DNA of 64,000 nucleotides from Candidatus Adlerbacteria bacterium (GCA_026397405.1 JAPLUW010000001.1:171138-235137); one strand, 5' to 3'. Shown: positions 11,458 to 51,273, numbered from the stretch's first letter. The notes: a model not told the origin generated them from the letters alone. Numbers and translations are program-made.

Positions 11458-12528
11458 ATGGCACCAAAAGCAAAAGAGAAAGAAAAAAAGACACCCGCAG
11501 AAGGAGGTCGCGACACCAGCGCCATTGATGCGGCAATACGTGAAATAAAAACTAAATTCGGCGAAGAGTCGATAATGAAGTTGGGCGAGACGGCAAAAGT
11601 AAACATCGACGCAATCCCCTCGGGCTCTATTGGCCTCGACTGGGCACTTGGCATTGGCGGGTACCCGCGTGGACGCATACTCGAAATTTTTGGCCCAGAA
11701 AGTTCCGGAAAGACTACTCTTACCCTGCACGCCATTGCTGAAGCGCAGAAAAAAGGCGGCATCTGCGCGTTTATAGACGCCGAACATGCGCTCGACCCGG
11801 AGTATGCAAAAAAAATCGGTGTAAAACTTGATGAGTTGCTTGTCTCGCAGCCAGACACAGGTGAGCAAGCGCTCGAGATTGTCGAAAGCCTTGTACGTTC
11901 AGGCAAAATCGACATTGTTGTTATCGACTCTGTTGCCGCACTTACACCAAAAGACGAAATCGAAGGAGACATGGGCGCGTTCCATGTGGGTAAACAGGCA
12001 CGCCTCATGAGCCAAGCGCTACGTAAGCTGACCGCCATTACCGCAAAGTCAAAAACGATTGTTATCTTTATTAACCAAATCCGTATGCAGATAGGCATGA
12101 TGTTTGGCAACCCAGAGACTACCCCGGGAGGTAAAGCATTAAAGTTTTATACATCGGTGCGTTTGGACATCCGCCGCATTGCGCAGATTAAAAAAGGCGA
12201 AGAAGTTGTCGGTGGCCGCCACCGCGTAAAAGTGGTTAAAAATAAAATTGCAGCACCGTTCCGCAAAGTGGAGTTCGATCTACTCTATAACGAAGGTATT
12301 TCCCGCGAGGGCGAGTTGTTGGCACTTGGCGAAAGTTTAGGAGTTGTCAGCAAAAGTGGCAGCTCGTACAGCTTTGGCGAAGAAAAGCTGGGCCGTGGCT
12401 ACGACGCGTCGCGAACCTTCCTGCGTGAAAACAAACCGATAGCGAATACCCTACTGAAACAGATCCGTACCGCGCTTGAAACAAACGCGCCTGCCAAAAG
12501 CGCAGGCGGTGGAGACTCGGACGAATAA
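11458..12528 (+). CDS. recA: Recombinase RecA
   Basis: 356 aa; [36 protein letters not shown] Walker A / L1-L2 region typical of RecA. Confidence 0.95.
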
Positions 12529-12593: not shown

Positions 12594-13025
12594 CTACTTG
12601 TCGGCCATCGCGCCCTTGTTGGCATAGGCCCGCTCGAGCATCGCTGCCAGGCCACGAGGAACCTTGGGCTCGGCGCCGTCGGTGACGTCGTAGGCCGCCG
12701 CGAAGTCGACGTAGGACTGGCGCTTCGCCTTGCTGAGCTGATCACGGCTGCTGTAGAGCGACAGATAGGCCGCGTCGACCTTGTGGAAGACACGCAACTT
12801 GTCATCGCCGATGGTCACGAGGCGCGTCTGCGCAGTGGCCAGGTCGGCATGGCCGTCGAGCAGGTGCGCGAACCGTTCCTTGCCGATCAGGCCCTTCTTG
12901 GCCATCAGCATGTCGATGGCAGCACAGATCGAGTCGGCGACGGAAACCGGTGGAAGGCTTTTCACGAGCCGATCTTCGTACGTCGCGCTCTTCTGCGGCT
13001 GACCAGTCATGGGCTTGTCGGTCAT
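12594..13025 (-). CDS. Hypothetical cytoplasmic protein encoded by compositionally foreign (high-GC, GC3-rich) cassette A
   Basis: 143 aa ORF MTDKPMTGQPQKSATYEDRLVKSLPPVSVADSICAAIDMLMAKKGLIGKERFAHLLDGHADL...; codon usage (GCC/CTC/GAG/CGC/ATC) unlike neighbours; RBS GGAAGGA upstream. Confidence 0.6.
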   Translation of the reverse strand: MTDKPMTGQPQKSATYEDRLVKSLPPVSVADSICAAIDMLMAKKGLIGKERFAHLLDGHADLATAQTRLVTIGDDKLRVFHKVDAAYLSLYSSRDQLSKAKRQSYVDFAAAYDVTDGAEPKVPRGLAAMLERAYANKGAMADK

Positions 13026-13044
13026 TTGTCTTCCTTCGTTGTGT

Positions 13045-13120
13045 GCGGGGACATCCCCGCGACTCGTTACGTCCGGATATGGACAAGAAGCAATATAAAT
13101 TACTAGTTAAAAGAAGTCAA
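13045..13120 (-). promoter_or_regulatory. Near-consensus sigma70-type promoter plus 5'-UTR palindrome driving cassette A
   Basis: Minus strand: -35 TTGACT (13120..13115), 17-nt spacer, -10 TATATT (13097..13092); 7-bp-armed palindrome GCGGGGA-ca-TCCCCGC at 13045..13060 between -10 and RBS. Confidence 0.45.
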
Positions 13121-13132
13121 GCCCCTACCCTT

Positions 13133-14087: not shown

Positions 14088-14170
14088 GGTGCCCTGTTTA
14101 CAACCACACAGAGCCCAAAAAGTTTCGCTCTAGAGCTCGACAAAGTGGCCTTTTTAAGTAGAATGCGTGG

Positions 14171-14746
14171 ATGGCAATGCTTGAATATAACGAGATTTTA
14201 AATAAAAAAGTAATTCTGCTCGACGGCGCTCCGTACGAAGTGTTGGACGCGCACGTCTTCCGCAAACAGCAGCGCAAGCCAGTTAACCAGACAAAACTCC
14301 GCCACCTTATTACCGGCAAAGTGACCGAACACGCCTTCCATGTATCGGAAAAAGCTGAAGAGGCCGACCTGTCTTTAAAGAGCGTAAAGTATCTCTACGC
14401 TGCAAAAGGCGAATACTGGTTCTGTGCCGAAAACAATCCCGCAGACCGCTTTACACTTTCGGCAGACACGGTTGGCACCGGTGCGCAATTTATGAAGACA
14501 AATTCTGTCATAGACGCGGTTGTCTTTGACGAGAAAATAATTTCTGTCCGTATCCCAATTAAAGTCGAACTTGTTGTGAAAGAAGCGCCACCCGCTGTGC
14601 GTGGCAACACATCACAAGGCGGCAACAAAATAATTACCCTCGAAACCGGCGCCACAGTAAACGCCCCTCTGTTTATAAACGAAGGAGATGTAGTGCTTAT
14701 AAACACCGAAGTTGGTAACTACGTCGAACGAGTCGATAAGAAATAA
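14171..14746 (+). CDS. efp: Translation elongation factor P
   Basis: 191 aa; three-domain EF-P pattern (LEYNEI..KPVNQTKLRHLITGKV..., KIITLETGATVNAPLFINEGDVVLINT). Confidence 0.9.
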   Translation: MAMLEYNEILNKKVILLDGAPYEVLDAHVFRKQQRKPVNQTKLRHLITGKVTEHAFHVSEKAEEADLSLKSVKYLYAAKGEYWFCAENNPADRFTLSADTVGTGAQFMKTNSVIDAVVFDEKIISVRIPIKVELVVKEAPPAVRGNTSQGGNKIITLETGATVNAPLFINEGDVVLINTEVGNYVERVDKK

Positions 14747-15020: not shown

Positions 15021-15473
15021 CTAGAATGGGATGTCGTCTGGGTTAATGTCTTCCTGGGGGTAGTCTATCGCGTCGTCTTTAGGGGCTGGCTGCTCTTCTC
15101 CCCCACGGCTTGCACCTGCGCTTGTCGAAGGAGATCCTCCCCCTCCAGGCCCTGAGGTGCGCGAGCCGAACTGGACACGCTCGGCAACTACTTCTGTCCG
15201 GTACTGCTTACCTTTTTCTGGAGTCTCCCAGCTGCGGGTCTGCATACGGCCGTCGATAAGTGCTGAAGAACCTTTTTTCAAATACTGCGCCGACGTTTCT
15301 GCTTGGCGACCAAACACCACAACGTTGTGATACTCTGGCACGTCTTCCCACGTTTCGCCTTTTTTAACGCGGCGGTTTGTTGCAACACTAAACGTTGCAA
15401 CCTGCCCACCACTTGGGAGTGTTTTCAACTCCGGGTCGCGGGTCAAGTTTCCGTACAGAATGACTTTATTCAT
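15021..15473 (-). CDS. ssb: Single-stranded DNA-binding protein
   Basis: 150 aa; OB-fold N-terminus MNKVILYGNLTRDPELK, G/S-rich linker, acidic C-terminal tail ending DDIPF. Confidence 0.9.
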   Translation of the reverse strand: MNKVILYGNLTRDPELKTLPSGGQVATFSVATNRRVKKGETWEDVPEYHNVVVFGRQAETSAQYLKKGSSALIDGRMQTRSWETPEKGKQYRTEVVAERVQFGSRTSGPGGGGSPSTSAGASRGGEEQPAPKDDAIDYPQEDINPDDIPF

Positions 15474-15492: not shown

Positions 15493-16008
15493 TTACGACA
15501 CCAGCGCGTCCAGAGACTTGTCGATTTCCTCCTGCGAGATTTCTGCAGGTTTTTCTACTGGAGCGTCTTCAACAGGCTTTTTGATTGTCTCCCCTTCCAA
15601 ACGGTCAGAAGCAAAGACTGCGCGGCGTGGAGCTGCCTGAATGTCCTCGCGGACAGTTTCGATAACCAAGTAACGGAGAACATTTTTGTTTGCACGGAGT
15701 GCCTCCTGCAGTGCAGGAAGTGCCTCACGGCCAAGAGCAAATTTGATAAAACCAAAATATGCTTCTGTGCTCTTTTCGCGTTTACCTGTTTCCGAGCGGA
15801 CAATTGTGTACGCAAGGGTCATCTTCTGCGGGAACTCTTCACTAATAATTTCAGCGTCGCCAAGAGCTGACTTAATTTCGGCCACAACCGAAGCAACGCC
15901 ATCATCACCCACTGTTGGGGCAACATGAAAGCCGACCTCATATACGGGGCGGCTTTCGGAGACATTCGCTTGGGTTAAGACCTCGGCGGTCTGCGATTTT
16001 TCTACCAT
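15493..16008 (-). CDS. rpsF: 30S ribosomal protein S6 (with acidic C-terminal extension)
   Basis: Start placed at MVEKSQTAEV (ORF-track ORF 15493..16026 starts at an upstream Met); RPVYEVGFHVAPT matches S6 N-terminal core; rpsF-ssb-rpsR is the canonical order. Confidence 0.75.
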   Translation of the reverse strand: MVEKSQTAEVLTQANVSESRPVYEVGFHVAPTVGDDGVASVVAEIKSALGDAEIISEEFPQKMTLAYTIVRSETGKREKSTEAYFGFIKFALGREALPALQEALRANKNVLRYLVIETVREDIQAAPRRAVFASDRLEGETIKKPVEDAPVEKPAEISQEEIDKSLDALVS

Positions 16009-16040
16009 GCAAGGAGCGTACCACAAAGATGCAATTTTGC

Positions 16041-16080
16041 AACCAGAAAGCAGAAAGGCGAATCATTTGAGTGATTCGCC
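16041..16080 (-). terminator. Intrinsic terminator of high-GC cassette B
   Basis: Perfect 9-bp hairpin ggcgaatca-tttgag-tgattcgcc (16057..16080) followed on minus strand by T-rich run (plus aaccagaaagcagaaa). Confidence 0.55.
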
Positions 16081-16116
16081 TGGGCGTTTTAAGGAAACGC
16101 TCCTAAACCTTAACTT

Positions 16117-16347
16117 TTACCAGCCGAACTTGCGTTCGAACCAGTCGCTGGTGATCTCCCAGATCCAGGCCCCGAGAGCGAGGGGTCCCATAATGGCGAC
16201 CAGGACGGACACCGTCCGCAGCCACACATTACAGAAGATTGTGCTGCGCTGCATGCAATAGTCCTGCCAGTGGATCATACCGCCGAGGCCGAAGCCAAAG
16301 GCAATCATACCGACAAGGCCGATGACGAGAAACAAAATCGCGCGCAT
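16117..16347 (-). CDS. Small two-TM membrane protein encoded by high-GC cassette B
   Basis: 76 aa MRAILFLVIGLVGMIAFGFGLGGMIHWQDYCMQRSTIFCNVWLRTVSVLVAIMGPLALGAWIWEITSDWFERKFGW; GC visibly higher than neighbours; RBS GGAGAA. Confidence 0.5.
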   Translation of the reverse strand: MRAILFLVIGLVGMIAFGFGLGGMIHWQDYCMQRSTIFCNVWLRTVSVLVAIMGPLALGAWIWEITSDWFERKFGW

Positions 16348-16369
16348 AACATTTCTCCGTGTTGGCGAT

Positions 16370-16454
16370 ACTAGGCGGAATTGCCTAGTGTCGCAGGGAA
16401 ATCAACGTACGTGAACTCTGTATATATCATACTACTATCTTTATATTTTGTCAA
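16370..16454 (-). promoter_or_regulatory. Near-consensus sigma70-type promoter plus 5'-UTR palindrome driving cassette B
   Basis: Minus strand: -35 TTGACA (16454..16449), 17-nt spacer, -10 TATGAT (16431..16426); palindrome ACTAGGC-ggaatt-GCCTAGT at 16370..16389 in the 5' UTR. Confidence 0.45.
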
Positions 16455-16517
16455 GGGGTACAAAACCCCGCAAAATAATGCTATTTTGGGCACCTATGCG
16501 GCCTTTTGTTTAAAACC

Positions 16518-17969
16518 TTAGTGGATTGGAGTCGAATAACCCATCTCTTCTTCCAGCTCTATCCCCGCCTCTTCGAGTGGTTTATGCATCGTTTTGCGTA
16601 ATGGGAGTTCGGGTAGGAACAATACGAGGAAAAACGCTGGCACGACAACTGCCGCGGCAATTAAAAACGTTGTTGGGAGTGCCGCGCTTAGTGCCATACC
16701 GCTTGCGAGCCGCGCGTTTACGAGGCCGCCAAAAAACGCTCCTCCAACCGACGCACCAATACTGCGGAACAGCTGCACCGACGCAGTCACCACGCCAAGT
16801 TTTTCCTGCCCAAAGGCGTTTTGCACCACGATGTTAAACACCGGCAGTGTGATACCAAGCCCCGCGCCCATAAATATCATCTTCAAAATTATTTCCATTT
16901 TTGTGCTGTCGGCACCCATGCGTGAAAACAAAAACAGACCCACAGCAACCATCACCACCCCGCACACGACCAGCACTTTGTATTTGCCCGTGCGCGAAAC
17001 AATCTGCCCCGACAGGGCGCTCATGACAACAATACCAAGCATCAGCGGCGTCAAAATAAGCCCCGCGTGCGTTGCGCTAAAGCCGGCCACTTGCTGGGCA
17101 AAGAGCGGCAAGTAAATAATCGAGCCAAACATTCCAATAGCGGTTAAAAACACCGAAGATACAGAGATTGAAAATGCACGGTTACGGAACAACGACAGCG
17201 GCAACACTGGGTCTTGTGCGCGTTCTTCCACAAAGATAAATGCAACAAACGCCGCGAGTGCTGCGGCAAACAGGCACTGTATCGTGAAGGAACCCCACGC
17301 GTACGTGCTGCCGCCCCACACAAGTGCCAACAAAAAAGGCACAAGTGTCGCACCAATTAAAAACGCACCGAGGAAGTCTATCGGATACTTTTTTTGCACA
17401 TGCTTAATGCGCGGCAGCGTTAGTGCAATGACCGCAAGCGCCAAAAGCCCGAGCGGGATGTTGATATAAAATATCCAACGCCACGAGTACGAGTCGGTTA
17501 TCCATCCGCCAAGGAGAGGCCCTGCAACGGAGGCAATACCAAACATGCCGCCGAGCAGGCCCATCCACTTGCCGCGCTCGGCCGGCGGGAAAAGGTCACC
17601 TACAATGGCAAACGAGTTGACCATAATCGCCCCGCCGCCAATACCCTGTATTGCGCGGAACGCGATCAACGCAAACATCGACGTTGCCATACCCGAAAGT
17701 ACGGAACCGACGAGGAAGATAACGATGCCAAAGATATAAAAAATGCGACGGCCGTAAATGTCGGAGAGTTTGCCGTACAGCGGCACGGTTACGGTCGAGG
17801 CCAGCATGTATGCGGTAAAGACCCACGACAAATGTTCCATGCCGTGCAGGTCGGCAACAATACGCGGCAGTGCAGTTGAGACAATAGTTTGGTCGAGGGC
17901 TGAAAGCAGCATGGCAAGCATCGCCCCGCACATAGCGGCGACTTTTGGGTTGCGTAAAAATGTTGGCAT
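16518..17969 (-). CDS. MFS transporter, DHA2 (EmrB/QacA-like 14-TMS drug:H+ antiporter) family
   Basis: Start placed at [21 protein letters not shown]; [10 protein letters not shown]...[28 protein letters not shown] motifs; ORF-track ORF extends to 18056. Confidence 0.8.
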
Positions 17970-18011
17970 CGCAGTAGTATACCAAATTGGCCTTTTTACT
18001 GCCTGTTTGGG

Positions 18012-18050
18012 CAAAAAGATACCCCGAGTGTTGGAGATACTCGGGGTATC
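18012..18050 (-). terminator. Strong intrinsic terminator of high-GC cassette C
   Basis: Perfect 12-bp hairpin gataccccgagt-gttggagat-actcggggtatc (18018..18050) followed on minus strand by TTTTT. Confidence 0.65.
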
Positions 18051-18068
18051 TTCCAACGCTCGGGGCGT

Positions 18069-18605
18069 TTACTTCTGCTTGTCGATCGGCCGGCAGGTCT
18101 CGTCGCCGGTGCCGGCGTGCATCTTGGTCTGGCCCGCCGGGCACACAGCCGGCGGCTTGGCGTCGGCTGTCTTGCCGACGCGCTTGGTGTCGAGTTCGAA
18201 CTGCTCGGCCATCTTGCTGAGCTTCTCGACACCGAAGCGCTTCCGGGCCTCGATAGCTCCCATCAGGAGCTTGAGGTCCGACTCGAGCAGCTCCCTGGTC
18301 GAATAGAACTTGTCCGCCCCGAGCAGGCCGAAGTGGAACTGGTCCAGCTTGGTGCCGTTGGTCTCGTTGGTAGGACAGACCTCCGACTTCACACGCAGCG
18401 ACTTGACCGTGTCCGGCCGGCCGAATACGTCCTTCGTCCAGTCGAGCACGGTCAGCTTGTGCTCGGTATAGGGGTCGCAGTCGGCAGCGAATGCCGGCGA
18501 CACGTCGACCATCGCCAGAAAGGCGATGGTCGCGAAGACGAGCCGGAGCGGCCTGCCCTCGAGATACTCCCGGACGCGCCCGATGGCGCCAATGAAGGTG
18601 TTCAT
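18069..18605 (-). CDS. Secreted Cys-containing hypothetical protein encoded by high-GC cassette C
   Basis: 178 aa; signal peptide ...LRLVFATIAFLAMVDVSPAFAADCDP; five Cys; approx 64% GC with GC3-rich codons, unlike flanking tatD and MFS genes. Confidence 0.6.
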   Translation of the reverse strand: MNTFIGAIGRVREYLEGRPLRLVFATIAFLAMVDVSPAFAADCDPYTEHKLTVLDWTKDVFGRPDTVKSLRVKSEVCPTNETNGTKLDQFHFGLLGADKFYSTRELLESDLKLLMGAIEARKRFGVEKLSKMAEQFELDTKRVGKTADAKPPAVCPAGQTKMHAGTGDETCRPIDKQK

Positions 18606-18633: not shown

Positions 18634-18705
18634 AGGGCCGAAATAGCCCTTTAAACCGTTGATACTACCTCTACTATTATAGCACCCTTTGGTGCTACTT
18701 GTCAA
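18634..18705 (-). promoter_or_regulatory. Consensus sigma70 promoter (overlapping 3' end of tatD) with spacer palindrome and 5'-UTR hairpin driving cassette C
   Basis: Minus strand: -35 TTGACA (18705..18700, inside last codons of tatD), 18-nt spacer containing palindrome GCACC-aaag-GGTGC (18695..18682), -10 TATAAT (18681..18676); hairpin AGGGC-n7-GCCCT in UTR (18650..18634); RBS GGAGAG. Confidence 0.5.
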
Positions 18706-34560: not shown

Positions 34561-35090
34561 GCGAAATCTTTTCCTACTCTACTATCAGGATGTTCGCGAT
34601 TATAGATGCGTTCACTTCCTTCCATCAAGTACACATTTTTAATACCTCCAGCAATAACTGCATTCCAACACGGCTCACACGCCCACCAATGGCCATACAA
34701 ATAAAGATCTGCACCGTTCGTGTCATGACCATGCGCTTGTGCGTCAGCAACAGCTTTTGGTTCACTGTGATTCTTCGGATGGCATCCTTCACAGAGTTCG
34801 TATCCTTGACCTGTTGGAATTTTTTGCTTCACGCGTTCGCATTCATGTGTCTTGTGATAGTCGCTTCCATTAGCCCCCCGACCGATAACTGCGCCGTCTT
34901 TTACGATGACAGAACCAGTAGGAACTTTACGGTCAAGCGAATGCTCTCGTGAATATTCTTTCGCTTCTTGGATAAATGGATTACTCTCGGGAACATACTG
35001 AATAATGCGACCTTCCGGGAGATAAGGATAGTGTATTAGTTCCACATCAAATTTATACCACCCGGGCTCCAACCTGGCTATTTGCCCCAC
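34557..35090 (-). CDS. Deoxycytidylate (dCMP) deaminase, zinc-dependent
   Basis: 177 aa; H-S-E (HSEPKAV) and C-E-P-C (CEPCWNA) zinc-binding motifs of the CDA/dCMP deaminase fold. Confidence 0.75.
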   Translation of the reverse strand: MGQIARLEPGWYKFDVELIHYPYLPEGRIIQYVPESNPFIQEAKEYSREHSLDRKVPTGSVIVKDGAVIGRGANGSDYHKTHECERVKQKIPTGQGYELCEGCHPKNHSEPKAVADAQAHGHDTNGADLYLYGHWWACEPCWNAVIAGGIKNVYLMEGSERIYNREHPDSRVGKDFA

Positions 35091-35116
35091 CGCTCCCCCG
35101 CCCCTATAATTGCGCC

Positions 35117-35953
35117 ATGGCCCGATTTGACTCTATCTACCAAGAACTATTGGGCACTATTGTAAAGAAAGGCATTCGAGAAATGTCGGAGCGAACGAAG
35201 CACGAAACTGCCGCCATTCCCGGCATGCATTTTTCTATCGATATTGAAAAAGAAGGGTTTCCTATTCTCACACTCAGAAAAATTCCTATCAAAATGTTCG
35301 TCGCCGAGCAAATCTGGTTTATCGCAGGCGTTCGCAAACCAGCAGATTTTTTACGGGACTACACAAAAATTTGGGACAACTTCACGAACCCGGCAGACGT
35401 CGTGACTGTTGCCTACGGATATCGTTGGCGAAAACATTTCGGCCGCGACCAACTCGGCCTTCTTGTTGATCTTTTGAAAAAAGAGCCAAGTTCAAGACAC
35501 GGCGTCGTGGTGACGTGGGACCCAGCAACCGACGGGCTCAGTTTGTTCAAGAAAAAAAACGTTCCCTGTCCGTATACATTCACGGTCAATATTATTGGCG
35601 GCAGACTTCACTTTCATAACATTGTCCGTTCAAACGATGTCATCTTAGGTCTCCCCGCAGACGTGGCAGGATTTGCATTGCTTCAGATAATCTTGGCGCA
35701 GAAGCTTGGCGTCAAACCAGGAGTCTATTCTCACTCTATTTCAAACGCTCATATATATGACAATCAATACGAAGCAGCAAAAGAAATTCTGAAACGGGAA
35801 AGCACCCACAAACCTATTCACATCACGTTGCCAAAAAATGCCTACGATCGTGCAGAGAAAAAAGATAAAAAACTTCTCGACGAGATCGTAGAAAATATTA
35901 CCGCTCAATACAAACCCCTGGAAGCGATCAAAGGTTTACAAGTAGTCTTATAA
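35117..35953 (+). CDS. thyA: Thymidylate synthase
   Basis: 278 aa; RRWKHFGRDQL-like region, catalytic PCPYTFTVN (Cys nucleophile) motif. Confidence 0.9.
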   Translation: MARFDSIYQELLGTIVKKGIREMSERTKHETAAIPGMHFSIDIEKEGFPILTLRKIPIKMFVAEQIWFIAGVRKPADFLRDYTKIWDNFTNPADVVTVAYGYRWRKHFGRDQLGLLVDLLKKEPSSRHGVVVTWDPATDGLSLFKKKNVPCPYTFTVNIIGGRLHFHNIVRSNDVILGLPADVAGFALLQIILAQKLGVKPGVYSHSISNAHIYDNQYEAAKEILKRESTHKPIHITLPKNAYDRAEKKDKKLLDEIVENITAQYKPLEAIKGLQVVL

Positions 35954-42830: not shown

Positions 42831-43236
42831 CTTTTTGCCCGTTGGCTCCAGTCGCAAAGCGACATAGTCGCCTGCCTCCTCAAAAAGCCTCTGGCCCTCG
42901 CCTATTCGCTCCGCGGGCTCGGGTCCAGTTCGATTCCCAGGCAAACGCTCGCGTTGCAAAATACCCCGACCAAATGGCCGAGGTATTTTGTCACCGTGGG
43001 TGCCTGACGGTTCAAAACTCAAAACCAATAGTAGATTTCCTTATGGGCTTGAGTTCTGCGGCGTCTAAATTGCACCACTTCCAGAATAGGCTTATTTCTG
43101 CACACAAGCAAACATAGACTAATGTTTCTACTTGTTTTTATCTTCCCAGTCCCATTTGGCAAGCAAATCAAAGATTTTCGCTAGTTGAGCTATATCCTCT
43201 TCCTTAAATTTTAAATTACTATCTTTCTGCATATCA

Positions 43237-44106
43237 CTACAAAGTGGACTCGTAGGAAGCTTTTACAAGACTGAAAATATAGTCAATATCGCTCTCAGGG
43301 GTAAATTTGACCACACCTCTAAATCCCCACCTGTGAGTAGTCACGTCTCTTACAATGCCTTTACTATCTCCTTCATAAGAAGGATCCCTGAGAAGAAGCT
43401 GTATCCAAGCTCCCTTAAACTCAAGACGGGTAAAACTTTTAGTTGTGCGATAAGTGATTCCGGTTTTTTGTCCAGCCACTTCTTCTACTGACGGAAGTTG
43501 GAGAAGTTTTTCTTGCAATGTAAGGAATGCTTTCTGCATTTCTGGAGTAGCTATATCAAGATGATAGTCTAGGTTATATTCGGTCTCCTCCTTTTCTTTT
43601 TTCGTTATACGTTTTTTCTCAGGTCGAGGGCTATATTCATTCTCAATATTAAGAACGTTTCCTTCATAGAGGGAATATGTTTTCAGCTCGACTCTTTGAT
43701 GGGTAGGAGCTGCTTCTCTAGTTCGCTTATCGAAACCTTGTGCTATTAAGATGACACGTGGATTATCCCAGATTACATCCATCTCCTTCCCTAATTTGTT
43801 TTGAACCAATAGTTCAAATTCTCGTTTATTTTTGAGTAGCCACCCTAAATACGAAAGGCTTTGCGTAAAAATTTCCTTATTTTCATGCCATTTGTATTCA
43901 ATAATTACAGGAGAATTATTTTCATCGATTCCCAAAGTATCAATTCTTCCGTCTGTAGTAGGATACTCTTTTTCAAGGAACCTCACACCAAGTATTTCCT
44001 CTAAATTTTCTGCAAAAAAATCACGCAGATTAAACTCATTACCAAAACCTTCTGTTTTAAGACTAAGCTGCTGAACTTTTTTTGTATCTATTTTAAAAAT
44101 AGCCAT
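43237..44106 (-). CDS. PD-(D/E)xK nuclease-fold protein (NucS/Mrr-like N-terminal core, unknown C-terminal domain); candidate restriction/defence endonuclease
   Basis: 289 aa; GRIDTLGIDENNSPVIIEYKW fits D...(E)xK catalytic arrangement. Confidence 0.5.
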   Translation of the reverse strand: MAIFKIDTKKVQQLSLKTEGFGNEFNLRDFFAENLEEILGVRFLEKEYPTTDGRIDTLGIDENNSPVIIEYKWHENKEIFTQSLSYLGWLLKNKREFELLVQNKLGKEMDVIWDNPRVILIAQGFDKRTREAAPTHQRVELKTYSLYEGNVLNIENEYSPRPEKKRITKKEKEETEYNLDYHLDIATPEMQKAFLTLQEKLLQLPSVEEVAGQKTGITYRTTKSFTRLEFKGAWIQLLLRDPSYEGDSKGIVRDVTTHRWGFRGVVKFTPESDIDYIFSLVKASYESTL

Positions 44107-44112
44107 ATAAAT

Positions 44113-45528
44113 TTGAATTATGAGCTGGGCAGAAGTTGTTACCTCTATACAATATTTTTTACATTATACATCCATCAAAGTATTGCAAAAAAGCTAGAAC
44201 ATGGCATAGTTTTGGCACATATGCACGAGATAAAGTTGCCGAAGGTACTATTCCTAGTTTTAGTGATAGCACGCCATTTTCACAAAAAGCATATCATAAA
44301 TACAAACGATCTAGCTGATTTGGCCAATAAGTTTGCCAGTGAGCTAGTTAGGCTCAAAAAGACAAAGAAGGACTACAAATCCTTGGAGGATACTAAGTTT
44401 GGAGGCCTGCGAGGTAATTTTTCAACCGTGCTCACTTTTCGTGGCATGGTAAAGAGAGGTAGCCGCATTATTTCTTACTATGGGATAGGTCGGGACGACC
44501 GCATTCTTAATGCACTTCTGAAAGGAGAGATCGTTTTACGCGAATCAGACTTTACAGCTCATACAAACAATGAAAAATTGAAGGATCTACTTGAAACAGA
44601 AGCCCATCTGTTAAATGTCCGTGAGGATCAGGCACATATAAAGTTGCGTCTTGAAAAAGGAGATATCCCTCTCAAGAGGGATGATGTGAGTTTCCCAAAA
44701 GAATCTGTCGTATATAGTCCATCGGGACAATATTTCATACGTGGTTTATTCAACAATTACATAAACCGAGGGAAAAACTTGGTGGAGTACAATATTACAA
44801 ATTTGTGGTTTGGAACAAAGTTTAAAAAGAAAAATATACATCTCCTCTTAGCTGTACCTTCTGCATCTGATTCGTGGGATAAAATTTATGCAGTAAAAAA
44901 CGAGGAACTTATTAAACACAAACCACTTCTTTTGATAGTGGATGTCGATAAATTGTCCTGTACGGACAAAGATGGAAATAATTATAGGCTTTATCCCCTC
45001 GAAGAAGCCCTATTAAGTTTCTCAAAAGCAGAAGAAAATATTTCCGAGCGACTAGCCTATAATTCCAAAAAGGTGGTTGAGGACAATTGTGAAGATGAAG
45101 TTGAGGATAGAGAGATGCAGGAAGATGAATTTTCTATATTTCTCGAAAAGTTCTTACACTGGGGAAAGCTTTTTTCTATAGATAAGAAAGATGTGATCGA
45201 TATAAAAGTCTCAAGTTCCGGAGGTCCCGATGTTCGCTTAATATTTTCTGGAGGTACAACGCAGGCTTTAGAGTTGGAGCATAATTGGAAAAACTATATT
45301 GATCACGGTCATCCCACTAACGGGGCATTCTCTAACTGTTGGATATTTGCAGAAGAAAATTGGGATCCACAGAGAATCCTAAAACTCTTCAGAGAACTCA
45401 AAAAAATACATGGTGTACGTATTCCGGATGTTTTTCTTTGTTTGGATAATGGGGTACGAAAGGCTTATAGAGCCAATTGGGATGAAGAGACCTTCGAAGA
45501 AATAGATTTAGATTTTCCTATCTCTTAA
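44113..45528 (+). CDS. Large hypothetical protein, candidate restriction endonuclease/specificity partner of the adjacent methyltransferases (true start possibly at 44221, MHEIK...)
   Basis: 471-aa ORF only 6 nt from the divergent nuclease gene start, so an internal start is likely; C-terminal PDVRLIFSGGTTQALELEHNWK weakly resembles a PD-ExK core; 4-nt overlap with downstream Dam-like MTase. Confidence 0.4.
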   Translation: MNYELGRSCYLYTIFFTLYIHQSIAKKLEHGIVLAHMHEIKLPKVLFLVLVIARHFHKKHIINTNDLADLANKFASELVRLKKTKKDYKSLEDTKFGGLRGNFSTVLTFRGMVKRGSRIISYYGIGRDDRILNALLKGEIVLRESDFTAHTNNEKLKDLLETEAHLLNVREDQAHIKLRLEKGDIPLKRDDVSFPKESVVYSPSGQYFIRGLFNNYINRGKNLVEYNITNLWFGTKFKKKNIHLLLAVPSASDSWDKIYAVKNEELIKHKPLLLIVDVDKLSCTDKDGNNYRLYPLEEALLSFSKAEENISERLAYNSKKVVEDNCEDEVEDREMQEDEFSIFLEKFLHWGKLFSIDKKDVIDIKVSSSGGPDVRLIFSGGTTQALELEHNWKNYIDHGHPTNGAFSNCWIFAEENWDPQRILKLFRELKKIHGVRIPDVFLCLDNGVRKAYRANWDEETFEEIDLDFPIS

Positions 45529-46565
45529 TTTTCCCCCGTTACAAGCACTTCTCTGATATTTTTTATAGTGCCCCTACCCTGCATAGAATGAGAGTGTTTA
45601 AAATAATATACACGAACTTTTTTAAAATATTTTTTACATATGGCTTTTAATTCCGTTGAAGTTATCAACCCACTCTCTGAATAACTAATTGCTACTTTCG
45701 CGCCTATATTTGAGGCGTGGCTTACTATAAAATCAAATTCTCCACTTACTTTGCTTGGGTAACAAAAATCTGACTGAAAACGATCTTGTCTATAAAGCCC
45801 CTTGTGACTAAGCTTGGGGTAATCATATTTGACTGCTGTTTCTAGCAAATGGTAGAAACGGGAATATTGTGCAGGAGAATATGGCGGGTCAATATATACA
45901 AGCTTCACTCCCCTCAAGTATTTTTTGATATTTTTATCTGTAAATAAATTTCTGTAATCCATCGAAACTACCTTGTTTTGGAAATTAGAGAAAAGTATGT
46001 GGTTTTCCAATAATTTTTTTGTAAATGCATCAAGGATACTCAGCTTTCGAAGAGTTTTTAATCGGGGGTGATCCTTGGGCATATATTGCGCAAAATGTCC
46101 GGGACTAGATTGACAATGACCCATAGCATATATCAGCGCGGTAAGATAAATCGCTTTTTTCTTTGTATCTTTGACTTTATCTATGGCAAACCGGACATTG
46201 TCTATTTCCACACATTGCTCTTTAGTGAAATAAGTATCTGTGTAGTATTTTTGAAATAGTTTGTAAGTTTTATTTTTAGAAAGATGTGGATATATATCTC
46301 TTTCAAGATCTTCAGCAGATAGACGTACTTTGTTGTTTTCTATTCTTGCGATACCTATAACTTTTGAATACTCTTGTACATCATTGCCAATGATGGGATG
46401 GTTTGGCTTCAATGCATATCCTATCGAATGAGTGCCCGCCATCAAATCAAGAATTTTATCTCCTTTTGAAACCATTCTTTCGAGAATTGGGGCTATGCGA
46501 TCAAGTAATTTTATTTTAGACCCCATATATCTCATGATATATGTCTTGGGATATTCCTTTTTCAT
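45525..46565 (-). CDS. Dam-family (D12 class) DNA N6-adenine methyltransferase
   Basis: 346 aa; motif I-like YMGSKIKLLDRIAPIL and catalytic DPPY. Confidence 0.8.
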   Translation of the reverse strand: MKKEYPKTYIMRYMGSKIKLLDRIAPILERMVSKGDKILDLMAGTHSIGYALKPNHPIIGNDVQEYSKVIGIARIENNKVRLSAEDLERDIYPHLSKNKTYKLFQKYYTDTYFTKEQCVEIDNVRFAIDKVKDTKKKAIYLTALIYAMGHCQSSPGHFAQYMPKDHPRLKTLRKLSILDAFTKKLLENHILFSNFQNKVVSMDYRNLFTDKNIKKYLRGVKLVYIDPPYSPAQYSRFYHLLETAVKYDYPKLSHKGLYRQDRFQSDFCYPSKVSGEFDFIVSHASNIGAKVAISYSESGLITSTELKAICKKYFKKVRVYYFKHSHSMQGRGTIKNIREVLVTGEN

Positions 46566-47893
46566 TCTTCTTTCCGGAATATAAGAATCCAGTCATGATT
46601 CATAATCCCACTGTACGAATTCCTCGAGGTGAGTAAGGATCTTGAGTTTTCATCAAAGCTATCCTTGAAACAAGCTATGGATTTTAGATTGAGATCCTCT
46701 GCAATTTGCAGAAAATGCTCGTGGGTTTTTATTTTTTCATTTCTAACTGTACTATCACTAATCTTCATTACTAAGTGGCCATTCTTTTTTAGAACTCTGT
46801 TCATTTCACTCATACTTTTTCGCATATCGTTAAAATATTGAGAAACGACTTTAGCCATTTTGTGCTGACCATCTCTCTTAAGCTGAAAGATTTGTTTATC
46901 TAATTTAGGAAAGCCAGTCAGCATTGTATCCTCCAAATCTTTCTTATAGAATCGTTCTGTGCCTACAAGTTTTGTATCGAGAGAAAGGTATTCCTTCTGG
47001 TTACCTATAAAACCTAACCATCCCATTTCTATTTTTAAGGTTTCTAAGTAACGTATAGAGCTTATATACGGAGGATTCACCACTATTAAATCAATTCCTC
47101 TTATCTCCTTCGGAAGATCTCTCGAATCGCCTTCTATTGCTTTTATTTTTGCCCTATTAACGGGTAGAGCGTCTAAATAGTCCAACCGGCGCTTTATTGT
47201 TCTCGTAAAAGACGCCTTGACGTCTATTTTTCTTTTACCTTCGGCGTCTAATTTTCTCAGACGCTTACTATAGCCAGGAAATACATGTCTGGGATCTGCA
47301 TTTGAAACACCACGTAGAAATGCTGAAAAAGATGCCAGGAAGAAATCCCTAACGTCCCCCTCTGGTAGCTCCAGTATATTTTTCCTTAGTCTAAGAAGAT
47401 CTTTTTTCGCAAAATCCTTAAACCAATGGTCTATATTTATGCAATAGAATTCAGACTTAGTGGAAAGCTTTGACTTATCTGTATCTATTTTTTTCTGTAA
47501 TTTCTCCCAAGTCTGCTCTACTATTTTTCTATCAATCTTTGTGGTTTTTACTTTAGAAATGAACGTTGCTAACGGATTAATATCCACTCCAAAAGCATTC
47601 CTATTTAAATTCTTCGCCTCTAGAAGAGAGGTGCCAGATCCTGAAAAACTATCGAGTACATAATCTCCTTCCTTCGTGAAATTCTTGATAGCGAAGCCTG
47701 GTATTGCGGGTATAAGTTTGCCGAAATATCGGTGAAACGAATGCATTCCATTTCGATGAATTTCTTTCTCTTTATTTAAGAGCGCCTTGTAGTATTTATT
47801 TGCTGTGATTTCAACGTTCATTTTTGTAGAAATCGCTGGAAAAACATCGGAGGTAATTAATGTCTCGACGTCTGGCTCTCGAAGTTTACTCAT
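46562..47893 (-). CDS. DNA methyltransferase (N6-adenine or N4-cytosine; alpha-type motif order)
   Basis: 443 aa; AdoMet motif DSFSGSGTS, catalytic NPPY (LIVVNPPYIS); 4-nt overlap with Dam-like MTase. Confidence 0.75.
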   Translation of the reverse strand: MSKLREPDVETLITSDVFPAISTKMNVEITANKYYKALLNKEKEIHRNGMHSFHRYFGKLIPAIPGFAIKNFTKEGDYVLDSFSGSGTSLLEAKNLNRNAFGVDINPLATFISKVKTTKIDRKIVEQTWEKLQKKIDTDKSKLSTKSEFYCINIDHWFKDFAKKDLLRLRKNILELPEGDVRDFFLASFSAFLRGVSNADPRHVFPGYSKRLRKLDAEGKRKIDVKASFTRTIKRRLDYLDALPVNRAKIKAIEGDSRDLPKEIRGIDLIVVNPPYISSIRYLETLKIEMGWLGFIGNQKEYLSLDTKLVGTERFYKKDLEDTMLTGFPKLDKQIFQLKRDGQHKMAKVVSQYFNDMRKSMSEMNRVLKKNGHLVMKISDSTVRNEKIKTHEHFLQIAEDLNLKSIACFKDSFDENSRSLLTSRNSYSGIMNHDWILIFRKEE

Positions 47894-48078
47894 ACCTCGT
47901 AATTATACCTCTTTTAAGATAATTGGCTCCGACATTTTTGCCTGAAATTTGGTAAATTTGCTGAAGACATAGAGTTTTACAACAATTCCATGAAATGGAA
48001 AGCATTGTTTGATTAAATTCCCTATCAGTAGCGATATCTCCAATGTAGAGCTTTAATTAACTTGAAACTTGAATATCT

Positions 48079-48393
48079 ATGGAATCTACTGCACTGAAAC
48101 AGAATGCGTGGGGAGGAGCTAGAGTTGGGGCTGGCGCTCCCATTTCCTCAAGAACTCTGGAGACTCAAAAGATACGTGAGCTAATGCTGAAACGCTTGAA
48201 GCCTCGTGCAAAGAAAGTCTTCGATGCTCTCATAGACGCTGCTGAAAATGGAGACGTTGCCGCTACTCGACTACTCTTTGAATATTCTCTTGGCAAACCA
48301 AAAGAGCAGATTGAGCACACGGGAAATATGGGGATCCTTCACTTAATTTCTTCGTTAGAAAAACAAACTAATGCTCGAACGACAGAGAGCTAA
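48079..48393 (+). CDS. Hypothetical small basic protein (island cargo)
   Basis: 104 aa ORF; no recognisable motif. Confidence 0.3.
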   Translation: MESTALKQNAWGGARVGAGAPISSRTLETQKIRELMLKRLKPRAKKVFDALIDAAENGDVAATRLLFEYSLGKPKEQIEHTGNMGILHLISSLEKQTNARTTES

Positions 48394-48913
48394 CTATAGT
48401 CGCCATTTCATTATGTAGGACTGTGAGATCTGTGGAGGTAGCTGAGGGAGGAAGTATGGCAATACTCAGGCGTTCTTTGTTATCCGGCGTATTAACTATG
48501 AGCCAGTCAACATATTTCCCATATTTAACAGATATTGCCTGCTGACCACCAACTTGTATCGTTTCGTATCCTTGGGACACATCGTAGCCAGAATTAGAGC
48601 TTTTAAGCCAGTCTAGAGGCGTTTCAGATGGACTAATCTTTCTAGGGCTAATAACTATTGCTCCTGCCTCCTCAATAGCCTGATTCTTCGTGGAGGCAAT
48701 TGGCAATACATATATCCAACCTCCGTCAGTGTTGTTTGTATCATTACCAACAAGAAAATTATCTGCTGAATATTTGAAGGAGAAGCCAAATTCTGTTGCG
48801 TTATAGGTTTGGATATTTTCTGCCTTGATTGGGTGGTGGAGAATTAAAAAGATTGAAATGAATGCCACCATTATCAGAATCAAAAAGATTAAAAAACTAT
48901 GTCGTTTTTTCAT
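48368..48913 (-). CDS. Hypothetical membrane-anchored secreted protein (island cargo)
   Basis: Start placed at MKKRHSFLIFLILIMVAFISIFLIL (signal anchor); ORF-track ORF extends to 48979. Confidence 0.4.
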   Translation of the reverse strand: MKKRHSFLIFLILIMVAFISIFLILHHPIKAENIQTYNATEFGFSFKYSADNFLVGNDTNNTDGGWIYVLPIASTKNQAIEEAGAIVISPRKISPSETPLDWLKSSNSGYDVSQGYETIQVGGQQAISVKYGKYVDWLIVNTPDNKERLSIAILPPSATSTDLTVLHNEMATIVSSLSFEH

Positions 48914-49302
48914 ACTCCAAAAACAGTTATATACGCTGTTTTGATTACCCAAAAGATTACTACTAGGAAAAGAAACCAACAGAACAAACTCATTAGAAAA
49001 CTTCCAAGTGACTCTGGTTCTTGCTTCATAAACATTAGTTAACTAATAGTTCCAGAGGTGGAAACACAAATCCCACCGCTAGGAGGCTTGCGCCCTATGT
49101 AAGTTTCCCTACATAACATGCAACATGCCCTAACGATGGGGTTTCTATGTTGCATGGTTTTCAACCTTACCTCTGGACTCTTTCCAAAGGGTTAGGTTCT
49201 TTTCTCCCTATTCAATTGTCGAACCCCTTTAGTTTAACGTTCTTTTCAAAATGGCAAAGGAGGCTGTTTAGGAGCAGTTTTTGTGTGTACTATCAAAGCT
49301 AT

Positions 49303-50028
49303 ATGACATGGGTGTCAGATAAGAAAATTCTTGAGCATTTTAGTGATCTCAGAGAAAGGAAGGATTTTTTGAAGTTAGTGGCAAAAGTGCGCCACAATGC
49401 ACACCTTCCTTCTGCTGGCCTAGATATCACAAAAATCATAAAAGAGAATGGGCATTCTATCTTTTTTTGGGAAGCTCATGTATCTACGAACGATCGAAGG
49501 ATTATCGAAAAGGGCGCTAAAGAAATTTTGAAGAGACTTAATCTGGGACCGCATTTAGAAGAAATAATAATCTCTTATATTGCCAAGGGAGATGGTTATG
49601 ACAAAGGTTTGACTTCCAGTGTCTCCGTGACTGTTGGTTGTTTACTATCAGAACAGGACGATCACTTTCTCATGTATATCTATCCTGAGGCAACTCAAAA
49701 CCATACAATCCAGTTTCTGAAGGATAATTGGGACTACATAAAATATTGGCTCCAAGAAAAACATCCAGAGCGGCAAGCGTTGAAGGTTAAGAAGAGAACA
49801 CAGCGTGATCGAGATAGAAAAATTATCGAGCTTTATGATTGGGGAGTTCTAAAAGCTTCGGGAGTATATAACCTAAAAAACGCAAAAGTTTTTTTGGCCA
49901 CAAGAGGGATAGAAGTGGATGATGTTTTGGACATATATAAAAGTTTTAAAAGATTGAACTACGCACTACCCAAACCTGACGCTATCAAAAAGGTAGTTCA
50001 AAGATACAACAAACTTCGCAAGAGTTAA
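49303..50028 (+). CDS. Hypothetical protein (island cargo)
   Basis: Start placed at MTWVSDKKILEH; ORF-track ORF begins at 49147; AT-rich codon usage. Confidence 0.35.
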   Translation: MTWVSDKKILEHFSDLRERKDFLKLVAKVRHNAHLPSAGLDITKIIKENGHSIFFWEAHVSTNDRRIIEKGAKEILKRLNLGPHLEEIIISYIAKGDGYDKGLTSSVSVTVGCLLSEQDDHFLMYIYPEATQNHTIQFLKDNWDYIKYWLQEKHPERQALKVKKRTQRDRDRKIIELYDWGVLKASGVYNLKNAKVFLATRGIEVDDVLDIYKSFKRLNYALPKPDAIKKVVQRYNKLRKS

Positions 50029-50155
50029 ATTAGGGAAGTATTTTCAAAGGAAATATGTCGGCTGGCTGCCGACTCTTTTTATTTTACCGTCAGCGCATGG
50101 TCGAAATTAATAACAACCAAGCGCACACGACAGAACTTCAAGAAATTGAAGACTT

Positions 50156-50584
50156 TTGTGTGCGGTTGGCACCAGAACTCATCAAAATATGGAAGAGAAC
50201 GAAGAGCAGTCCATGAAAAGAATGGGCGAACTCATGCATACTCCTTCCTTTGTTGCAGACGACCCAGACGACGCAAAGTATTCACTAATTATGCACGGCC
50301 TCTGTAAAAAGTACGGAGTAAAAGAGCCTCTGGAGCGTCATATTTTTTCAATCATTGAAAATATGTCCAGAAATATGCTCTGTGTCTACAAATTAGAACA
50401 GTTTGCTAAATATTCAGGCGGCACACCCGAAGAGATAGAAAGGGTGCTTGAAAAGCTTGAACACCGAAACTGCATCGTCAGAGGTAAGGCAAAACAAACG
50501 AATGGTTGGAGATTGACTGAGGAAGTCCGGCGATCTGCAAAATGGTTTAAGGAGGCTATCAAACTGAAAACAAAACATGGGTAA
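50156..50584 (+). CDS. Hypothetical protein (island cargo)
   Basis: 142-aa ORF; internal Met at 50189 is an alternative start. Confidence 0.35.
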   Translation: MCAVGTRTHQNMEENEEQSMKRMGELMHTPSFVADDPDDAKYSLIMHGLCKKYGVKEPLERHIFSIIENMSRNMLCVYKLEQFAKYSGGTPEEIERVLEKLEHRNCIVRGKAKQTNGWRLTEEVRRSAKWFKEAIKLKTKHG

Positions 50585-50905
50585 AATCCTAATTAATTTT
50601 ATAACGAAGTTATAAAAAATTCTTAATTAAGCTTTTTTTAAAAGCTTCTTTATAAAAAAGCCCTAGGAAGGGAGGAAGGTTGATAAGTCTGGCGCTCCCC
50701 CGCTTCGCCTCAGAGGTTGTGGCTTCTTTACCTCCCCTAAGCCTCAAAACTGGTGTTTACGCAGAGAAAGCACGAAGGCTGGGAGGAATCACCACTCTGC
50801 ACAGGTTCCAACGTTCTAAGTGGTTTTACGCAGATTAAAAAAATTAAAAAACTCTGCGGTTTCCAGAAGGATAAAAATAACGAGGTTAACTTAAACAATA
50901 ACAAT

Positions 50906-51244
50906 ATGAAAAAAGCAATTATCTACGCTCGAACAAATTATTGGGGTGAATGGGCAGATATAAATCTATCAGTGCAAGAAAAAAGTTGCCGGCGACATGC
51001 AGAAGCCTACGGCTACACAGTAATCAAAATCTTTAGGGACAAATCCTATAGACGCAGAGAGGGACGGCGTCAGCTACCTCAACTGTTTCAGTATCTACAA
51101 AACAATCCCAACAAAGTTGACGCTCTGTTTATAGCAGAACAAAAAGTACTAGCGGCACATTGGCCGGACTACTTAGCACTCCGTGAAAGATTGAAGACAT
51201 ACGGAGTAAAAATTGAATCAATCAAGTATAGATTAAAAAGATAA
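50906..51244 (+). CDS. Small resolvase-domain protein lacking the catalytic serine (degenerate serine-recombinase paralogue)
   Basis: MKKAIIYARTNYWGEW... aligns with the YxRVSSxxQ catalytic region of the adjacent large recombinase (VIYVRVSSEEQ) but has RTN instead of RVS. Confidence 0.45.
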   Translation: MKKAIIYARTNYWGEWADINLSVQEKSCRRHAEAYGYTVIKIFRDKSYRRREGRRQLPQLFQYLQNNPNKVDALFIAEQKVLAAHWPDYLALRERLKTYGVKIESIKYRLKR

Positions 51245-51273
51245 AGGCACGTTAAAAACCAGATAAAATAATT

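Follow-up and report, generated by a model that had tools for sequence, protein, structure and literature searches.

Phage morons, in the concept of Hendrix and Juhala, are pieces of extra DNA placed between neighboring genes, with deviant GC content, insertion at hotspots and their own promoter, terminator or both (PMC2920897). Integron cassettes are short single-ORF units of deviant composition, often ORFans, and different cassettes occupy one position across strains. They are promoterless, end in attC, are arrayed beside intI/attI and are transcribed from Pc. Type I toxin-antitoxin (TA) units of the Hok/Ldr/TisB/Fst kind stand alone in intergenic regions and combine a small hydrophobic protein, with one TM helix and fewer than 60 aa, with a 5' leader that occludes the Shine-Dalgarno (SD) sequence. 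Class II holins have a two-TM layout and a charged, usually basic, tail, and they are encoded in lysis cassettes with an endolysin. Small membrane proteins also occur as transporter subunits of the AcrZ/KdpF type.

The locus described here, cassette B, lies on the minus strand of a 64-kb stretch of DNA (64,000 nt, referred to as the window) from a MAG of Candidatus Adlerbacteria, an uncultured lineage of the CPR. Its product is annotated by NCBI as a hypothetical protein (locus tag NT019_00920). It is flanked by an MFS gene (16518..18056), the product of which matched Pfam MFS_1 with E = 4.5e-60, and by rpsF (15493..16008), in agreement with the location originally predicted. We interpreted B to be a real, autonomous, single-gene accessory unit, moron-like in kind, which was added at a hotspot beside rpsF in one Adlerbacteria lineage, and we put the probability of this reading at roughly 60%. 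What Table 1 gives for the transcription signals (promoter, start site and terminator) and for the leader fold is predicted from the sequence.

Table 1. Coordinates of cassette B, its boundaries and the ORFs of cassettes A and C in the window
Feature	Position	Strand	Remarks
MFS stop codon TAA	16520..16518	-	sequence
Spacer DNA, 63 nt, from MFS stop to B -35	16455..16517	-	within the ~462-bp segment that relatives lack
Predicted sigma70-type promoter of B, TTGACA-17-TATGAT	16426..16454	-	scan 11/12
B -35 TTGACA; 17-nt spacer; -10 TATGAT	16454..16449; 16431..16426	-	
Predicted leader, ~72 nt	16348..16419	-	inferred transcription start
Leader palindrome GCGACACTAGGC-AATTCC-GCCTAGTATCGC, 12-bp stem with one mismatch	16365..16394	-	unique in window
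Shine-Dalgarno GGAG	16355..16358	-	7 nt 5' of ATG
B CDS, 76 aa	16117..16347	-	ORF; predicted two-helix membrane hairpin
Two tandem hairpins after B stop	16056..16103	-	joint fold z = -3.1
First B 3' hairpin	16103..16082	-	
Predicted intrinsic terminator, perfect 10-bp stem AGGCGAATCA/TGATTCGCCT plus T-rich tail	16081..16056	-	
rpsF native promoter TTGCAA; 16 nt; TACGCT	16042..16037; 16020..16015	-	downstream boundary, outside the cassette
Cassette A ORF	12594..13025	-	slot antisigma-recA
Cassette C ORF	18069..18605	-	slot tatD-MFS

The promoter, ribosome-binding site, ORF and hairpin terminator of B were all found at the places claimed for them, and B was a discrete unit with its own predicted promoter, leader and terminator. 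The ORF exactly occupied the interval between the leader and the terminator. The terminator hairpin, originally given as 9 bp, was indeed perfect, with a longer stem. The architecture had also been said to match that of cassette A. This was borne out for the kinds of parts, but no sequence similarity was found between the units A, B and C.

The pattern TTGACA-N16-18-TATNAT was found at only two sites in the 64 kb (both strands), against 0.03 expected, and these two sites preceded cassettes B and C. Among all the sigma70-like sites of the window, the C promoter ranked first and the B promoter second. The spacer upstream of the B promoter (16455..16517) contained no significant structure (fold z = -1.0).

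The leader palindrome had been proposed with 7-bp arms. The motif ACTAGGC-N6-GCCTAGT was present at 16370-16389, as a single occurrence in the window, where chance would give 0, and it turned out to be part of a longer stem (arms 16365-16376 and 16383-16394). Folding of the single leader sequence gave -26.8 kcal/mol (z = -2.6), and 4 of 200 shuffled sequences were as stable. In the minimum-energy fold, the SD sequence and the AUG were paired with the stretch AUUUCCC/CGU farther upstream, enclosing the 12-bp hairpin. Translation of B may thus be damped by this fold, if it forms as predicted. The palindrome could act as an RNA hairpin or, equally, as a DNA operator. A permissive Rfam scan of 12-19 kb found no family in the B leader; its sole matches were terminator-like, at the efp/rpsR junction.

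The evidence that B is an addition came from the relatives. The backbone metG-tatD-(slot C)-MFS-(slot B)-rpsF-ssb-rpsR-efp-sigma-antisigma-(slot A)-recA-x-ftsK was conserved in related MAGs and metagenome contigs (denoted by L numbers). In the closest relative (L002/L006/L015), the S6 protein was 88% and the MFS protein 92-95% identical to those of the window. The distance from the MFS stop to the rpsF -35 was 13 nt in this relative and 475 nt in the window, so the window carries about 462 bp extra.

Slot B was likewise empty elsewhere. The gap between MFS and rpsF was 47-60 bp in L002/L006/L015, L008 and L017, and the gap between tatD and rpsF was about 45 bp in L009, L010, L012, L016, L018, L020 and L023. 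The rpsF ATG lay 45-60 bp past the upstream gene in L006/L015, L008, L009, L010, L012, L016, L017, L018, L020 and L023. The rpsF promoter (TTGCAA-16-TACACT-type) was conserved in six species (alignment A1) and resumed directly after the B terminator. Alignment of this promoter between WR and the empty site scored 43, against 11.5 +/- 2. With the site empty in ten relatives and the rpsF promoter resuming after B, parsimony suggested that B was added in the lineage of the window. B therefore did not behave as a conserved native gene, the finding that would have spoken against the original prediction. Judged from these sequences, it is the empty sites, not the composition, that are the real evidence for B being derived.

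By this reading, the MFS gene and the rpsF promoter would originally have been separated by a spacer of 13 bp, which a segment of about 462 bp containing B then entered. The B mRNA would be monocistronic and transcribed independently of MFS and rpsF. The ends of B showed no significant target-site duplication or terminal inverted repeat. A flank repeat, CAAAAT[A/T]GCAT, had p ~0.03, and the 8-mer TAAGGTTT was at chance level. The resemblance of the left flank of B to the rpsF promoter was not significant when compared with the empty site (p = 0.46). No integrase or transposase was found near B (20 kb of syntenic context was searched for integrase), and no tRNA. There were also no phage or lysis genes near B, the neighbors being metG, tatD, MFS, rpsF, ssb, rpsR, efp, a sigma factor, recA and ftsK.

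The resemblance to phage morons is considerable. B is one ORF with a predicted sigma70-type promoter and intrinsic terminator of its own, it lies between genes that are adjacent in ten relatives, and its GC3 of 0.79 exceeds the native maximum of 0.69, though in the CDS only. The hotspots hold different units in different genomes. Many phage morons encode small membrane or exclusion proteins, and B is predicted to encode a small membrane protein. On the other hand, B lies among core chromosomal genes and not in a phage or prophage, has no PHROG or viral-contig match, has not been seen in a second genome or element class, and has non-coding parts of host-like composition. By this comparison B would work like a moron without being a member of the class, two of whose defining features it lacks.

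B differs from integron cassettes in having its own promoter and terminator. No attC-like structure was found at its 3' end beyond the terminator hairpins, and no intI. The absence of attC and intI, with the presence of its own promoter, excluded an integron cassette.

The composition test called for by the original prediction showed B to be an outlier. Its GC3 of 0.792 was above that of all 14,114 native windows (mean 0.47, sd 0.088, maximum 0.688), the null being in-frame 77-codon windows from 60 native ORFs. The total GC of 0.576 was a weaker signal, within the top 3% of 231-nt windows. The GC1, GC2 and GC3 values were 0.51, 0.43 and 0.79, respectively, a period-3 GC signal in the frame of the ORF. 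The GC3 of cassettes A and C was 0.84 and 0.90, and the remaining long ORFs in the window reached at most 0.60. The native highly expressed genes rpsR, ssb, efp and rpsF had values of only 0.48-0.59, so that the GC3 of 0.79-0.90 is unexplained by ordinary translational selection.

The shift was limited to the CDS. In the three units the flanks had a GC content of 0.41-0.47 and the CDS 0.58-0.67. The flanks of B were at 0.41-0.44, and the host-like composition of its non-coding parts is hard to reconcile with a simple piece of foreign GC-rich DNA. An independent Logan assembly of SRR20698644 (L001) was 100% identical over 6,312 bp, and the three cassettes were arranged in it as in the window. 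This identity and the seamless fit of B, with a stop codon on one side and a conserved promoter on the other, made an assembly chimera very unlikely.

The claim that B is a foreign cassette was thus upheld in part. B was compositionally deviant and inserted, but its composition alone does not show recent import, because the shift was in the CDS only, the high GC3 of A and C persisted in their orthologs, and no homolog of B in a donor lineage was found in the searched collections. High GC3 alone is no proof of a foreign origin or recent import of B. In the Adlerbacteria clade, a compositional outlier by itself should not be taken as a demonstration of recent horizontal transfer.

These same observations fit another explanation, in which B is native. 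B would belong to a fast-evolving, GC3-rich accessory class of Adlerbacteria, moved or created in this lineage, with its GC3 kept high by codon or mRNA selection or by biased gene conversion. Besides the shift limited to the CDS and the lack of a donor homolog, this is consistent with the confinement of the A and C families to Adlerbacteria and with the GC3 of 0.84-0.92 held by the A and C ortholog pairs, while the synonymous sites of their neighbors were 50-80% randomized. The genome L019 also has another small hydrophobic GC3-rich ORF at the site of B. Against it, no paralog or relative of B was found in any sampled Adlerbacteria genome, and the GC3 of the highly expressed native genes was far from that of B. 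We consider a native origin unlikely.

The ORF of L019 (243-380, minus strand) encodes 45 aa, is hydrophobic and has a GC3 of 0.74. Located immediately upstream of rpsF but in the opposite orientation, it is served by a TTGACA-16-TACACT promoter of its own and by a bidirectional terminator. It is not related to B.

The other slots were also variable in content. At slot C, the promoter and leader had a mean column identity of 80% across the window, L006 and L007, with about 2 differences in 68 nt between the window and L006 (by eye), whereas the C proteins in the same comparison were 51% identical or unrelated. The slot-C promoter (window 18676-18705, minus strand; L006 7765-7800; L007 9505-9545) matched the consensus at 12/12 with an extended TG. 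A palindrome, TAGCAC-N6-GTGCTA, within the promoter spacer was conserved in the three genomes and was followed by a conserved leader hairpin, GGGCTATTTCGGCCC. These two elements are probably an operator and a regulatory leader.

At slot A, the promoters and terminators could be aligned in four genomes (window 12594-13132, minus strand; L005 1585-2215; L007 12880-13520; L008 13365-14115). The slot-A ORF of L005 was 72% identical to that of the window, and those of L007 and L008 were undetectably related to it, despite about equal genome distances. Slot A in L009 (6078-7577) contained a 377-aa methyltransferase-like ORF (by eye) and a HicA/HicB-like pair, which indicated that this slot also accepts ordinary accessory genes. 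In L008, the efp-sigma divergent intergenic region, which is about 83 bp in the window, contained a GC-rich ORF of about 115 aa with an SD sequence and a strong terminator (11971-12330, minus strand). The ORF lengths in L007 (CAWCNA010000003.1) should be treated with caution, since its metG, recA, ftsK and slot-A ORFs were split by apparent frameshifts that are likely sequencing or assembly errors.

The slots in the metG-ftsK core region are hotspots for such units in the Adlerbacteria clade. The source of the high GC3 is a puzzle, with values of 0.8-0.9 kept within a genome of 47% GC. A simple import of foreign DNA followed by amelioration does not explain them. A simple old transfer with later amelioration does not fit, because the shift is limited to the CDS and the GC3 of 0.84-0.92 persists in orthologs. 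Either related alleles are re-acquired time and again from a GC-rich pool via the conserved flanks, or some force keeps the GC3 high. Nothing relevant to GC content and HGT in Adlerbacteria turned up in a literature search.

A more ambitious reading, which we hold to be rather improbable, is that B is the newest case of an undescribed cassette system of Adlerbacteria, in which intergenic expression slots are refilled with GC3-rich ORFans. Each slot would supply its ORF with a consensus promoter, a terminator and a structured leader, and the ORFs within would be unrelated or extremely diverged. Such a system would imply either a hidden pool of GC-rich genes exchanged via the conserved flanks without a known integrase, or a process that drives the GC3 as well as the divergence of the proteins.

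Along the metG-ftsK core genes, this reduced CPR genome carries several stand-alone GC3-rich genes with strong predicted promoters. The genes turn over between species, and their promoters, leaders and terminators are conserved. If the pattern proves general, it would point to a defined route by which these episymbiotic bacteria acquire and exchange membrane and secreted proteins specific to a lineage, likely factors of interaction. B alone is one more orphan small membrane protein, and its context matters more.

The protein was a strict ORFan in the collections searched. Both a word-indexed search of 5.8 billion clusters and an exhaustive phmmer (HMMER) search of 1.84 billion representatives returned only B itself. 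No match was found in Pfam, PHROGs, PADLOC or NCBIfam, by tblastn against annotated phages and plasmids, or in IMG/VR, which was scanned with the proteins of all three cassettes and with two DNA motifs. When the flanks and CDS of B were compared by BLAST with the window and 30 related loci, the only matches were chance ones of 11-14 nt.

The prediction of a two-TM membrane protein held. The hydropathy profile of B showed two hydrophobic spans (residues ~1-25 and 44-66), and AlphaFold2, run on the single sequence, gave a two-helix hairpin (H2-33 and H36-74) with a mean pLDDT of 85. TM1 was predicted at about residues 2-25 and TM2 at about residues 44-62. TM1 contained the small-xxx-small motifs G10xxG13, A16xxxG20 and G18xxxG22G23. 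C31 and C39 flanked the turn, as read from the sequence, and the C-terminal tail was 14 aa long with a net charge of about -1. Protein B would insert into the cytoplasmic membrane, where it would probably self-associate via the TM1 motifs.

A Foldseek search of the PDB with the model found generic hairpins with E > 5, none of them significant. The best look-alikes were hairpins of the F/V-ATPase c-subunit type (E 6-9, no Pfam match). This candidate was rejected: the mid-TM2 carboxylate of c-subunits was missing, the sole acidic residue near TM2 being E63, at its end.

As a best guess, held with low confidence, B would be a membrane factor that is neither toxic nor essential, and its role would lie in immunity, exclusion or envelope interaction. 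The position of B beside an MFS transporter gene recalls the AcrZ/KdpF-type subunits. However, B is equipped with a promoter and a terminator of its own, an arrangement not designed for co-transcription, and the L006 MFS protein, which is 92-95% identical, is found without B, so that B is not an obligate MFS partner.

A quite improbable alternative, which takes up the toxin/holin-like suggestion of the original prediction, is that B is a membrane toxin, belonging to type I or forming holin-like pores, with its translation restrained by the structured leader. B is small and hydrophobic, with glycine-zipper-like motifs and the two-TM layout of class II holins, and its SD sequence and AUG are sequestered in the predicted leader fold, as in many type I toxin mRNAs. 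However, with 76 aa and two TM helices B exceeds the length of typical type I toxins. No plus-strand promoter-like site of at least 9/12, a threshold that lies above weak promoters, was found in 16040-16420, an interval that covers the ORF and its 3' side, and Rfam matched neither an sRNA nor an antitoxin RNA near B. The atypical size and topology and the lack of an antisense RNA signal left a type I toxin unsupported. A class II holin was equally unsupported, with no endolysin or other lysis context in the neighborhood and a short, acidic or neutral tail in place of the usual basic one. A near-consensus promoter suggests constitutive expression. This strong, apparently constitutive predicted promoter, with no antidote or lysis partner, made a toxin or holin less likely than an accessory factor. 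The original suggestion of a toxin/holin-like or immunity component therefore gained nothing from the family, antisense and neighborhood searches.

B had also been proposed as a partner of A and C, which amounts to the three being one co-acquired system, such as a toxin, an immunity protein and a secreted effector. The three lie within 6.5 kb on the same strand, are alike in their list of parts and in GC3, and have no further ORF like them in the 64-kb window. However, core genes lie between them, all three have promoters and terminators to themselves, and the co-occurrence check in relatives showed independent distributions. C had one homolog, 51% identical, in the same tatD-MFS slot of L002/L006/L015, a genome without A or B. 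The homologs of A were 72-73% identical, and one of these likewise occupied the antisigma-recA slot, in L005, the contig of which stops short of slots B and C. L007 lacked B, and its slots A and C were taken up by other ORFs. Among the genomes sampled, B was present in that of the window only. Going by this distribution, a common system is very improbable and appears largely refuted.

The slot A and C ORFs of L007 and L008 were GC3-rich, with no detectable relation to A or C (BLASTP E = 2.3 and 16; all-versus-all). The A family profile matched the slot-A ORF of L008 with a non-significant hhalign E of 0.27, so that this ORF reflects either replacement or extreme divergence. No homologs of A, B or C outside Adlerbacteria were found in the searched collections. 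An AlphaFold2 model of A from a three-sequence alignment had a pLDDT of 48 and was unusable.

A and C evolved faster than their surroundings and were conserved as ORFs. The dN of C was 0.42, against 0.00-0.12 for its neighbors, and that of A was 0.20, against 0.10-0.15; dN/dS was below 1 for both. The value for C (0.71, Nei-Gojobori) is too high, because the GC3 bias brings dS near saturation, and it is no sign of positive selection.

That the ORF of B is spurious, the unit being a non-coding RNA or an assembly artefact, is scarcely credible: B is a single sequence and chance long ORFs do arise in GC-rich DNA, but the in-frame GC pattern, the correct SD spacing, the fit of the ORF between leader and terminator, the two clean TM helices with a confident AlphaFold2 hairpin, the lack of an Rfam match, the two identical assemblies and the conservation of the analogous A and C ORFs all contradict it.

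Other features of the region were also noted. The ssb gene (15021-15473) had a dS of 0.04 relative to L006, with 100% protein identity, and the dS of its neighbors was 0.26-1.3. This low value suggested a recent recombination tract between the lineages of the window and L006. Farther away, an island of about 9 kb (43000-52000) had a GC content of 0.35-0.40, against 0.47 for the whole window, and a GC3 of 0.30-0.38; this gene cluster was probably acquired separately.

The ATG of rpsF follows its -10 by 6 nt (ATG at 16008). ATG codons 6-7 nt past a -10-like hexamer were found in rpsF (16006-16042, minus strand), efp (14137-14173, plus strand) and the gene at 35117 (35082-35119, plus strand). This suggested that these three genes probably produce leaderless mRNAs. 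The rpsF arrangement, TTGCAA-16/17-TGTGGTAnnCT-ATG, was conserved in six species. Unlike rpsF and efp, the cassettes have SD-containing leaders of 70-90 nt.
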